Positions 28,020 to 35,892 of a DNA stretch of 64,000 bases are shown here, one piece after another. Origin of the DNA: Candidatus Kaiserbacteria bacterium RIFCSPHIGHO2_01_FULL_54_36 (lineage in GTDB: Bacteria; Patescibacteriota; Minisyncoccia; Phycocordibacterales; UBA2100). Position 1 is the first letter of the stretch. Each line of letters opens with the position of its first letter. A program made the translations under genes and the position numbers. Below the pieces are notes generated by a model, which was given only the letters and a program-made list of their open reading frames with translations, was not told the origin of the DNA and made no database searches. Location: positions 9,032 to 73,031 of the forward strand of contig MFKV01000006.1 in assembly GCA_001781105.1 (NCBI GenBank), read 5' to 3'.

Positions 28020-28934
28020 ATGGCAAATAGGCACCTCGCACGATCAGTCGTATTACAAGTCCTTTTTGAGCGGGACTCTACGGAAGGGAAATTGAGCAAC
28101 GAGCAGGCGTTCGGCCGCCTTGTCGATTACGGCAAGGAATTCGGCACGCGAGACAGTGACATGCCATTCATGAGGGAACTCCTCCAAACGGCGATCGCCA
28201 AGCAAAAAGAAATAGATGAAGTAATCGTGCGCGCAGCGCCCGAGTGGCCGATAGATCGTATTGCAGCGATCGACCGCAACATCCTGCGGCTCGGGCTCAC
28301 AGAGCTCCTCTTTGCCGATCGCGCGCAGGTACCGGCAAAAGTCGCCATCAACGAAGCCATCGAGCTCGCAAAATCATTCGGAAGCGCCTCGTCGGGCAGG
28401 TTCGTGAACGGCGTCTTAGGCGCTGTCTATGTAGAGCTCGGCGAGCCGGGAAAGAATGAGGGTGGTGCGCGCAAGCAAGGAGGAGAGCGGCTAGCAAAAA
28501 TGCCCACAGAACATCTGGCTGGCGCCGTCGTGTATGCGCGCTCGGAAGGCGAGACGTATCTCGCATTCGTCCACGATATTTTTGGGCACTGGACCATCTC
28601 GAAGGGCAAGATCGAAGAAGGGGAAGATGTCAAAGCGGGCGCAATACGGGAGATACAAGAAGAGATGGGGCTCGATATCAAGATCGTCCAAGAGCTCGGT
28701 GTCAACGAATACATCGCCAACGATTCCAAGGTGGAGGGTGGTAAGAAACGCAAGCGCGTGAGCTACTTCCTCGCCGAATCCCCTTTCACCGAGCTCAAAC
28801 TCGGTTCATCGGGAGGCCTCGATGATGCGCAGTGGTTCCCGCTTTCGGCAGTAGGGGACCTCAATTTCTATGATGATACTCTGAAAATAATTGTGCCGGC
28901 GATCAATGCGCTCGCTCGCGGCGAAAAACGCTAG
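28020..28934 (+). CDS. nusB: NusB antitermination factor fused to a C-terminal Nudix hydrolase domain
   Basis: N-terminal ~140 aa is NusB. C-terminus carries the canonical Nudix box GKIEEGEDVKAGAIREIQEEMGL. Confidence 0.75.
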   Translation: MANRHLARSVVLQVLFERDSTEGKLSNEQAFGRLVDYGKEFGTRDSDMPFMRELLQTAIAKQKEIDEVIVRAAPEWPIDRIAAIDRNILRLGLTELLFADRAQVPAKVAINEAIELAKSFGSASSGRFVNGVLGAVYVELGEPGKNEGGARKQGGERLAKMPTEHLAGAVVYARSEGETYLAFVHDIFGHWTISKGKIEEGEDVKAGAIREIQEEMGLDIKIVQELGVNEYIANDSKVEGGKKRKRVSYFLAESPFTELKLGSSGGLDDAQWFPLSAVGDLNFYDDTLKIIVPAINALARGEKR

Positions 28935-28939
28935 GAGGT

Positions 28940-29221
28940 ATGCCCGGCAGGACAATTTCGAATCGCTTTTACTACGTCTATGTGCTGGAAAGTATGAAGG
29001 ACGCCAAACAATACATCGGATTCACGACTGATCTGCGGAAGCGTATGGATCAACACCAGCAAGGCAAAAGTTTTGCCACAGCCCCGCGACGACCTTTCGT
29101 TTTAGCGTATTATGAAGCCTGTCGGTCCAAAATAGACGCTATGCGTCGAGAAGACTACCTGAAGCATTCAGAAGGTCGTCGCTTTCTTGTAAAACGATTG
29201 AAAGATTATTATGGAAAGTAA
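28940..29221 (+). CDS. GIY-YIG domain nuclease (YhbQ/UPF0213-like, 93 aa)
   Basis: YYVYVLESMKDAKQYIGFTTDLRKRMDQH…R…E..L matches the GIY-YIG catalytic core. Its ATG is the first 3 nt of the left inverted repeat. Confidence 0.65.
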   Translation: MPGRTISNRFYYVYVLESMKDAKQYIGFTTDLRKRMDQHQQGKSFATAPRRPFVLAYYEACRSKIDAMRREDYLKHSEGRRFLVKRLKDYYGK

Positions 29222-29249
29222 TTATTCGAAATTGTACTAGCCGGGTATG
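28940..29249. mobile_element. 310-bp element bounded by ~25-bp imperfect inverted repeats and carrying a GIY-YIG nuclease gene
   Basis: Left end ATGCCCGGCAGGACAATTTCGAAT. Right end ATTCGAAATTGTACTAGCCGGGTAT (reverse-complement ~21/25 identical). The same two ends bound a 141-bp gene-less copy at 1349-1489. Confidence 0.6.
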
Positions 29250-29933
29250 GAATTCGGGACATTCGAGCAAAAGATCGGATACGATTTCAAAGATAAAGGT
29301 TTGCTTCAGCAAGCGTTTACGCATCGCTCGTATCTCAACGAAAATCGCACTTCAGGCGCGGAGCACAATGAACGCTTAGAATTCTTGGGAGACGCGGTCT
29401 TGGAGCTCGTCGTCACGGAATTCTTGTTTGCCAAGTACCCCGACAAACCCGAGGGCGATCTTACCGCCTATCGCGCAGCGCTCGTAAATACGCAGAGCAT
29501 ATCGGACGCTGCGACGAAGCTGGGGATGAACGAATACTTATTGCTCTCGCGCGGGGAAGCGCGCGATACCGGGCGCGCGCGGCAGATCATTTTGGCCAAC
29601 GCATTCGAGGCCCTCATCGGCGCCATATACCTCGATTCAGGCTACGCGGCCTCAAAGGATTTTATAGGGGTACAGCTTTTTCATAAGACTGACGAGGTGG
29701 TCTCGAAGCGCCTGTGGCAGGACGCCAAGAGCCGTTTGCAAGAAATTGCGCAGGAGCAAAAGGGCATTACCCCTACCTATGAAATGGTGAGCCAGACTGG
29801 GCCTGACCACGACAAACTATTCGTCGTTGCGGCCCACATCGGGAGTGAGCGCATAGCGACAGGCGAAGGCCGCTCAAAACAAGAGGCAGAACAAGATGCT
29901 GCGCAGAAAGCGCTTGCAGCGAAGGGGTGGTGA
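29247..29933 (+). CDS. rnc: ribonuclease III
   Basis: RNase III signature ERLEFLGDAVLELVV and a C-terminal dsRBD. Its ATG lies inside the right inverted repeat of the GIY-YIG element. Confidence 0.85.
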   Translation: MEFGTFEQKIGYDFKDKGLLQQAFTHRSYLNENRTSGAEHNERLEFLGDAVLELVVTEFLFAKYPDKPEGDLTAYRAALVNTQSISDAATKLGMNEYLLLSRGEARDTGRARQIILANAFEALIGAIYLDSGYAASKDFIGVQLFHKTDEVVSKRLWQDAKSRLQEIAQEQKGITPTYEMVSQTGPDHDKLFVVAAHIGSERIATGEGRSKQEAEQDAAQKALAAKGW

Positions 29934-35617: not shown

Positions 35618-35892
35618 TGTGCACAAGCTCCTTGTGGCGATTTTACGAGGACCGACGTACAATAGGTCTTGTAGCACTCTTTGTTGCTGCCGAGTTCTTA
35701 CAATTGAAGAGCGAAAAGTAGCCTAAACCGCCGAGCAATCGGCGGCATGGCGAAAAGTCCAATGAAGCATGGAAAACCCATCATGGGATTGCTTCATTGG
35801 CCGTACGGGGAAACCCGTATGCTCGGCGCAAGCCGGGACCCGTGGTGGGCTTTGTGTTTTTGCTCGCCACGATAGTCAGTCAGGGAGCAGTT

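Follow-up and report, generated by a model that had tools for sequence, protein, structure and literature searches.

The genome of Candidatus Kaiserbacteria bacterium RIFCSPHIGHO2_01_FULL_54_36 carries, within a 64,000-nucleotide stretch of contig MFKV01000006.1 (assembly GCA_001781105.1, positions 9,032 to 73,031 of the forward strand; herein referred to as the window), two copies of a repeat-bounded unit, one enclosing the gene for a small GIY-YIG nuclease and the other gene-less. We consider it reasonably probable that these copies represent a single family of very small mobile elements of Patescibacteria, for which we infer a mechanism of transposition. Comparison with other genomes shows two size classes, precise insertion at start codons, presence/absence polymorphism, and selection on both the terminal arms and the protein. 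A preliminary description of this DNA had proposed a small transposable or homing element together with a miniature inverted-repeat transposable element (MITE) derived from it; a mobile element with a gene-less form is indeed what the comparison points to, but the nuclease does not look like a classical homing endonuclease, nor the miniature like a recent local deletion. Further copies, empty target sites and a GIY-YIG profile match had been named as checks on that proposal, and all three were found.

Two Copies with Shared Ends

The 27-nt left end of the element (ATGCCCGGCAGGACAATTTCGAATCGC) occurs exactly twice in the window, at 1349 and 28940, with a chance expectation of 0 in shuffled sequence even at 3 mismatches. 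Likewise, the 30-nt right end (AATTATTCGAAATTGTACTAGCCGGGTATG) occurs exactly twice, at 1460 and 29220, and the four matches to a 12-mer core (ACAATTTCGAAT), two per strand, all lie inside element arms. Left and right ends are imperfect inverted repeats, as had been described, and pair as an interrupted stem of 21+3 bp; folding predicts this long terminal stem in both the miniature copy (herein referred to as the mini; z = -4.6) and the full copy (z = -3.8). Between the shared ends, the full copy (28940–29249) holds a 93-amino acid (aa) GIY-YIG open reading frame (ORF) and the mini (1349–1489) an 84-bp insert.

All parts of both copies are read on the forward (+) strand. In the full element, the left copy of the (T)ATG target (28940–28942) starts the GIY-YIG ORF, 5 nt past the stop of the upstream nusB-nudix gene (TAG, 28932–28934). 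The left arm (CCCGGCAGGACAATTTCGAATCGC, 28943–28966) also codes for nuclease residues 2–9 (PGRTISNR), the nuclease gene (93 aa plus TAA) extends over 28940–29221, and the right arm (ATTCGAAATTGTACTAGCCGGG(T), 29224–29246) holds the TAG that terminates the ORF of 99-aa variants. The right ATG copy (29247–29249) is the start codon of rnc (RNase III, 29247–29933), and is the first possible one because an in-frame TAG lies at 29238–29240. In the mini, the left ATG (1349–1351) lies 3 nt past the tsf stop (TAA, 1343–1345), the left and right arms (1352–1375 and 1464–1486) are identical to those of the full copy, and the right ATG (1487–1489) starts a 130-aa ORF (1487–1879) for a predicted membrane protein with no Pfam match. 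Read against an alignment of 34 minis, its interior (1376–1463) comprises a conserved block (CCTTGATATGAACATTCACCA), a variable centre, a small hairpin (CCGCAGTTCGACCTGCGG) and a covarying 3-bp extension of the main stem. A 43-codon ORF (1349–1480) opens at the left ATG and closes at the right-arm TAG, leaving 6 nt to the host ATG.

Insertion at Start Codons and Empty Junctions

Every copy that we compared has the same site layout (xATG, then CCCGG…CCGGG, then TATG) and is co-oriented with a downstream ORF that starts at the right ATG; among these genes are rplB, rplV, rplX, rplO, ftsZ, mraY, topA, rnc and an aminoacyl-tRNA synthetase gene. Two kinds of left flank occur: in one, the upstream gene ends with its stop codon a few nt before the left ATG; in the other, a -10-like box lies 6–12 nt upstream, which suggests leaderless or short-leader transcripts.

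Among the fetched loci (numbered herein with an L), there are eight orthologous junction pairs in which one member is filled and one empty, and the nusB-nudix–rnc junction, filled in the window, has no insertion in Kaiserbacteria with an RNase III of 84–85% identity (e.g. …aaaTAActATGgca…). Each of these empty sites has a single start codon. This presence/absence at orthologous junctions therefore points to a mobile element that duplicates, or inserts beside, (T)ATG. For the junction between tsf and the ORF at 1487, no ortholog was found among the fetched loci. A T precedes the ATG in 7 of the 8 empty sites, against a background of about one third (~33%) at position -1 of start codons; among the 40 filled sites, position -1 of the left ATG holds T 29 times and C 8 times, and that of the right ATG holds T 38 times. 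The simplest description consistent with these sequences is an element CCCGG…CCGGG(T) flanked by a 3–4 bp (T)ATG duplication, or, equivalently, orientation-specific insertion beside (T)ATG. The preliminary description had the inverted repeats supply the ATGs of both the nuclease gene and the downstream gene; the positions of these ATGs hold, but they are better read as a host start codon that is duplicated or targeted.

Several junctions are occupied in more than one genome. The murF–mraY junction is filled in a Kaiserbacterium and in a Saccharibacterium, each by the mini subfamily of its own lineage; the ftsZ junction is filled in two Kaiserbacteria by copies with diverged interiors; and the ruvA–murE junction holds a full element in one genome but a mini in a second. 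The occupation of the same junctions in different lineages therefore suggests a narrow set of acceptable targets and counts against simple vertical inheritance.

Two Size Classes across Patescibacteria

In an arm-pattern scan of one genome per species, arms paired at 131–136 bp or at 300–303 bp were found only in Patescibacteria (Kaiserbacteria, Saccharibacteria and other metagenome-assembled genomes (MAGs) of the Parcubacteria group), and other phyla yielded single arm-pattern matches at chance level. After removal of redundancy there are 40 copies, 34 minis and 6 full elements, in two discrete size classes. The richest source is Kaiserbacteria RIFCSPHIGHO2_01_FULL_53_29, whose fetched stretches contain 13 minis and 1 full copy; here, each arm has its partner about 132 or 303 bp away. 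Close homologs of the nuclease (70–87% identity) lie in unrelated neighbourhoods (glycosyltransferases, sugar-nucleotide enzymes, ruvA–murE) between the same ends, and at these loci, too, the downstream gene begins at the right-hand ATG.

We found no larger element with the same arms: nowhere in the fetched loci does the spacing of an arm pair exceed 700 bp, paired arms in fact staying within about 300 bp of each other, and the nuclease gene is the only one that arms enclose. The atypical arm matches in this search were a degenerate copy (L022), a single arm (L092), a copy cut by the end of its locus (L052) and a 64-bp micro version (L097). The last of these (L097:730–793, Candidatus Wildermuthbacteria) is a 64-bp hairpin with related arms (CCCAGCAGAAGAATTTCGAA / TTCGAAATTGTTCCACCGGG) and may be a still smaller derivative. 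A search of IMG/VR viral sequences returned two unpaired, chance-like arm matches only. Copies can also lie close together: on one metagenomic contig, a full copy (L001:3004–3306) and a mini (L001:5899–6030) sit 2.6 kb apart in a single glycosyltransferase/cell-envelope operon, and at L137 (~1470–1800) a full element belonging to a diverged clade has the right-arm sequence TCGAATTTCTACTACCTGGTATG immediately before its left ATG, so that two tandem elements appear to share one ATG.

The 34 aligned minis share one layout, in which the arms enclose a conserved block (CGCCTTGTATGAATATTCAYCAGCGTATGA), a variable centre and a small hairpin beside the right arm, and this shared sequence architecture argues that the mini is a conserved family of its own and not a recent local deletion. 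An origin of the mini as a deletion derivative of the ORF-bearing form was considered and found to lack statistical support, alignments of its interior to the ends of the ORF reaching only z<=1.9. Common descent is hinted at only by the stretch TTGCAAA.CG.TT and by equal spacing to the stop codon. The 43-codon ORF that had been called a remnant is real, but beyond the leftmost ~27 nt and the rightmost ~36 nt the interior has no significant similarity to the GIY-YIG ORF.

A Probable Translational Relay through the Element

Most minis can be read through from end to end. Indeed, in 28 of the 34 an unbroken chain of reading frames opens at the left ATG and closes with a stop codon either 6 nt short of the host ATG or overlapping it (ATGA), against 5.0±1.9 (maximum 11) when interiors are shuffled; the chain consists either of one 42–46-codon ORF or of an 11-codon ORF that overlaps, via ATGA, one of 32–36 codons. 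In full copies, the stop of the nuclease ORF falls 6 nt (99-aa form) or 22–25 nt (93-aa form) before the host ATG. The relay peptides are not conserved and mini lengths vary over 131–136 bp; what is preserved in these sequences appears to be translation through the mini and not a peptide. That the element captures the initiation signals of its host gene and hands ribosomes on by termination-reinitiation is well supported by the arrangement of reading frames, and re-initiation at the host ATG would therefore make insertions before essential genes (rplB, rplV, rplX, rplO, ftsZ, mraY, rnc) tolerable.

A Minimal GIY-YIG Nuclease

The ORF at 28940–29221 matches PF01541 (E 3.7e-16) over nuclease residues 11–79, and proteins of the family measure 93–99 aa. 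In a profile search of solved structures, the best matches were UPF0213 proteins (BH0048, 1zg2, E 6.5e-11; EF2693, 1ywl), followed by Slx1. An AlphaFold (AF2) model (predicted local distance difference test score, pLDDT, of 78) comprises a bare GIY-YIG core in which the arm-encoded residues 1–7 are disordered, and Foldseek with this model returned 1zg2 and Slx1 at template modelling (TM) scores of 0.52–0.63. Seven residues (Y12, Y14, Y25, G27, R35, H39 and E59) are invariant in 28 diverged homologs. The standalone prokaryotic Slx1-like/UPF0213 fold has been described as a minimal GIY-YIG domain with Tyr, Tyr, Arg and Glu and without the C-terminal Asn motif (PMC1564403), and the profile hits, Foldseek matches and invariant residues all agree with it. 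The group I intron endonuclease model TIGR01453 scored 18.3 bits against a cut-off of 56.05 and covered residues 13–42 only. A Pfam scan found no HUH domain, and the element encodes no transposase of a known type (DDE, HUH, serine or tyrosine recombinase), the GIY-YIG nuclease being its only ORF. On profile and model evidence, then, the nuclease is assigned to the standalone Slx1-like/Ssn-like GIY-YIG group (Ssn nucleases are introduced below), not to the classical homing endonucleases.

Arms and Nuclease Diverge Together

Among full copies, the arms are 92–100% identical (0.89 on average at arm third codon positions) and the nuclease proteins 64–91% identical, with ORF third positions only 31–73% identical (29–75% at identical amino acids); synonymous sites of the nuclease ORF are near saturation. 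Arms and protein are conserved despite these diverged third positions, and purifying selection is therefore indicated on the arms at the nucleotide level and on the protein.

The arms are also conserved as a pair. Across the 34 minis, pairing holds in 98.8% of stem cells and 6 pairs have changed on both sides, a level that 0 of 500 shuffles matched, and slid stem registers give 19–44% pairing; at L055:4140, for example, TTCGAAT has become TTGGCAT in both arms. G·T is confined to one position, at the end of the stem, and the covariation fits an RNA stem and a DNA stem equally. This pairing, together with the absence of the block from orthologous sites, excludes a conserved promoter or ribosome-binding site (RBS) block, the alternative that the preliminary description had itself named. 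No Rfam family matched the mini or the arms, either when the whole window was scanned at gathering thresholds or when 1300–1540 was scanned at E<=1, and a promoter/terminator scan around the mini found no convincing signal on the sense strand. On the antisense strand, the right arm (1471–1476, -, and equivalent right arms) reads TACAAT, a good -10 hexamer; a simple promoter scan pairs it with a TTGCAA inside the host gene, probably by chance.

A metagenome scan with the protein profile recovered diverged clades with the same layout and different, mutually complementary arms. Examples are ACAACTTGGAAT/ATTCCAAGTTGT, ATGCCCGGTAGTACAACTTGGAAT / ATTCCAAGTTGTACTAACCGGGTATG (L127), …CCCAGTACTACAATGTTGAA / TTCAACATTGTAGTACATGGGTATG (L128), a perfect 22-bp pair (L131) and the complementary arms of L134; in a more distant clade, the right arm (TATCTCACGGGGTAA) codes for the C-terminus YLTG and the stop codon. 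Bracketing inverted repeats scoring >=11 surround 45 of 73 related GIY-YIG genes and 4 of 73 controls. All 47 close homologs have the arm-encoded N-terminus MPGRT(I/T)SN, and most have the arm-encoded C-terminus NNSKLY. Arms and nuclease are thus shown, by comparison of their sequences across clades, to co-evolve.

The arm-encoded N-terminus was not found in distant homologs (<=57% identity), whose genes adjoin tRNA genes instead. At L123 (1501–1853; GCA_041665145.1, Patescibacteria), the ORF of the distant homolog P0070 runs into tRNA-Ser(cga) (1766–1853), and the first 11 nt of this tRNA gene (GGAGAGGTGCC) recur ~80 nt upstream of the ORF, as if it had been inserted into or beside the tRNA gene. 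Two further distant homologs lie 60–110 nt downstream of tRNA-Tyr (L122) and tRNA-Arg (L124).

A Proposed Mechanism

The nearest system known, and a precedent for the layout, is that of the Ssn nucleases (clade cd10448), single-domain GIY-YIG proteins of ~94 aa that bind a hairpin repeat (NTS/SRM), cleave single-stranded DNA (ssDNA) just upstream of the repeat, but not double-stranded DNA or RNA, and accept a stem built from two strands or oligonucleotides (Chenal et al., Nat Commun 2025; PMC11893778). Ssn genes are flanked by the repeat on both sides, and the repeat is present in hundreds of copies; the authors remark on this repeat-gene-repeat layout, which resembles that of an insertion sequence (IS), and compare it to REP/RAYT, with mobility only hypothesised and with Patescibacteria and start codons unmentioned (PMC11893778). 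Like Ssn, the nuclease of the element (93–99 aa, GIY-YIG core only) lacks a DNA-binding domain, and nuclease and repeat co-evolve. In the repeats themselves the likeness is partial: many extra copies (at least 14 in one genome) are scattered about, often beside important genes, and the gene is bracketed by sequences that form a stem, but this stem has one half in the 5' flank and the other in the 3' flank, paired across the gene or across 84 bp, whereas an Ssn flank is a whole hairpin by itself. Also unlike Ssn, the arms of the element overlap the start of the ORF (and the stop in 99-aa variants), it inserts exactly at host start codons with a translational relay, and its filled and empty sites are direct comparative evidence of mobility. 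By analogy, the element may work like an Ssn/repeat unit with a different geometry, the likeness being one of layout and the nearest matches of the protein being UPF0213 and Slx1. A plasmid tblastn search with the nuclease returned only Bacillus-type YazA/UPF0213 genes and nothing tying the protein to Ssn.

We hypothesize that the autonomous form is the unit of ~303 bp (CCCGG…CCGGG), nearly all of which is one ORF for the 93–99-aa single-domain nuclease, its first codons (in 99-aa variants, its last codons too) being placed inside the terminal arms, and that the 131–136 bp form, which has the same arms and no nuclease, is presumably mobilised in trans. In all copies, insertion is at (T)ATG and in one orientation, such that the host start codon ends up on both sides. 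The left ATG copy, with the RBS, stop-codon coupling or leaderless promoter of the host, starts the element ORF and the right copy the host gene; ribosomes would cross the element, stop 6 nt before the host ATG or overlapping it, and re-initiate. When the DNA becomes single-stranded, the arms may, by analogy, anneal as a 24-bp interrupted stem, to which an asymmetric internal loop would give an orientation. By analogy with Ssn at hairpin repeats, the GIY-YIG protein could then recognise the stem and cut at its base, after which host repair or ligation would finish the excision or copying of the element and its insertion at a different (T)ATG.

Several points weigh against this explanation. The role of the GIY-YIG protein as the mover of the element is one that we infer by analogy, and the enzymology remains its weakest step: GIY-YIG enzymes act by hydrolysis of DNA, with no strand-transfer activity known for them, and a staggered double-strand cut would account for a (T)ATG duplication no less readily than a single-strand mechanism would. 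Within the repeated (T)ATG, the sequence is compatible with more than one boundary of the element; duplication and adjacent insertion would both fit. The best sequence and fold matches of the nuclease are, as noted, to UPF0213 and Slx1, the geometry of the arms differs from that of the self-contained Ssn hairpins, and the published SRM motif (consensus HGTCWYN(0-2)YYVSBRHN(0-5)WNVSBRGN(0-2)RNCYNB) has 0 matches on either strand of the window, with a mean of 0.57 in shuffles. Descent of the mini from the ORF-bearing form has no statistical support beyond the arms, the arm-pattern scan required conserved arms, which introduces ascertainment bias, and the copies are related by descent, such that the covariation and ORF-relay statistics overstate independence.

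A bolder extension, which we advance only tentatively, is that the ~303-bp form is fully autonomous and would be the smallest known transposable element, that a GIY-YIG/Ssn-type nuclease acting on an ssDNA stem formed by the ends of its own element would constitute a new mechanistic class of prokaryotic 'transposase', and that start-codon capture and relay may be a strategy for living within the essential operons of reduced genomes.

Alternative Explanations

It is conceivable, but in our judgment unlikely, that the arms mark the ends of a MITE family mobilised by an unrelated transposase encoded at another location, the GIY-YIG gene being a passenger or else a retention/homing nuclease directed at empty sites, a role that TnpB plays for IS200/IS605. 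Terminal inverted repeats with a short apparent target duplication are the classical signature of DDE cut-and-paste transposition, we know of no GIY-YIG enzyme that acts as a transposase, and minis far outnumber full copies; however, the fetched loci contain neither an arm pair more than 700 bp apart nor any other gene between arms, the nuclease ORF has co-diverged with arms that code for the termini of the protein, and strict single orientation at an asymmetric target would be unusual for DDE elements.

Presence/absence polymorphism at many junctions between closely related genomes, the independent occupation of one junction by lineage-specific subfamilies, and the finding of full and mini forms at the same site in different genomes all disfavour the idea that the copies are old, retained for a host function and not through continuing transposition, and that a domesticated Ssn-like nuclease acts on recognition repeats maintained by the host (cf. 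NTS in Neisseria), controlling incoming ssDNA or recombination near important genes. We regard this as rather improbable, even with the precedent of hundreds of repeats near important genes, a repeat-flanked nuclease gene and an effect on natural transformation (PMC11893778), and even given that copies precede essential genes and that the arms are strongly conserved where interiors have diverged. Exact start-codon placement and the ORF relay would be unexplained by a host function and resemble the damage limitation of a parasite, and domestication and mobility can coexist.

A purely RNA-level, vertically inherited cis-regulatory stem-loop (e.g. an RNase III processing site or a device for translational coupling) that holds the GIY-YIG ORF by coincidence is very improbable: the stem would sequester both start codons of the mRNA, one copy lies immediately upstream of rnc, and the ORF relay indicates a translational role, yet the copies are missing from orthologous junctions of close relatives, precede unrelated genes, match no Rfam family and keep near-identical ends across Patescibacteria classes though flanking proteins are only ~50–60% identical, and an RNA role in insertion tolerance would be compatible with a mobile element and leaves the distribution of copies unexplained.

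Comparison with Other Repeat Families

Viewed as a mobile element, the unit resembles IS elements and MITEs in its shared terminal inverted repeats and its empty sites, with a target duplication that is indistinguishable from adjacent insertion, and it differs from them in having no transposase of a known type. With REP/REPIN-RAYT and IS200/IS605 systems it shares a single nuclease gene between inverted palindromic repeats, many gene-less doublets, orientation-specific insertion beside a 4–5 nt target and, as proposed here by analogy, recognition of an ssDNA stem. Unlike these systems, which use an HUH/Y1 transposase with a covalent intermediate, it encodes a hydrolytic GIY-YIG enzyme and no HUH Y1 protein, and its stem is formed by the two element ends and not by subterminal hairpins; moreover, REPINs lie after genes, whereas the elements described here lie on start codons.

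The Correia/NEMIS elements of Neisseria and the Rickettsia palindromic elements (RPEs) are likewise 100–160 bp long, with terminal inverted repeats, a short target duplication and many copies; both are tolerated within transcription units, and RPEs even within reading frames. Neither Correia elements nor RPEs are known to contain a cognate enzyme; the present family, in contrast, includes an ORF-bearing form, and it differs further in that its target is the start codon itself and a read-through ORF chain is kept. Free-standing homing endonucleases such as the phage T4 Seg proteins and I-TevI also place a GIY-YIG catalytic domain among co-oriented operon genes; in contrast to these, the nuclease studied here has no DNA-binding domain and a fold of the Slx1/UPF0213 type, and it belongs to an element with terminal inverted arms and a gene-less form that occupies many unrelated loci per genome and not one homing site. 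In the literature on GIY-YIG nucleases, MITEs, Patescibacteria, start codons, COG2827, UPF0213/YhbQ and transposition, we found no description of the element.

Genomic Surroundings

The upstream neighbour of the full element encodes a 304-aa NusB-Nudix fusion (28020–28934, +), which is kept in related Kaiserbacteria (Pfam NusB and NUDIX in L207 and L209). At L211 (40–1116), the Nudix part of this protein and RNase III, which meet at the same junction as that filled in the window, are called as one 358-aa ORF (P0087), which could be a gene fusion or a frameshift. Elsewhere in the window, a 208-aa ORF (2013–2639, +) directly downstream of the tRNA at 1904–1976 has no Pfam match, and the LOOT RNA family RF03000 has a full-length match at 35720–35837 (+; 93.8 bits against a gathering score of 46.4).

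Implications

Filled and empty sites, a gene-less form and recurrent insertions at the same junctions are comparative evidence that repeat-gene-repeat units move, a question that the Ssn study had left open. The 141-nt mini and the 93-aa protein provide a possible substrate/enzyme pair with which to study the mechanism, and the diverged arm/nuclease pairs are candidates for new ssDNA-cutting tools. If the nuclease alone suffices, the size limit of an autonomous mobile element would fall to ~300 bp and a hydrolytic nuclease would join the enzymes of transposition. For the annotation of Patescibacteria MAGs, 43-codon 'genes' and host genes with mis-called N-termini are to be expected at element sites. 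For the organisms themselves, start-codon capture with a read-through relay would be a neat solution by which a parasite may persist in streamlined genomes that have almost no intergenic space.

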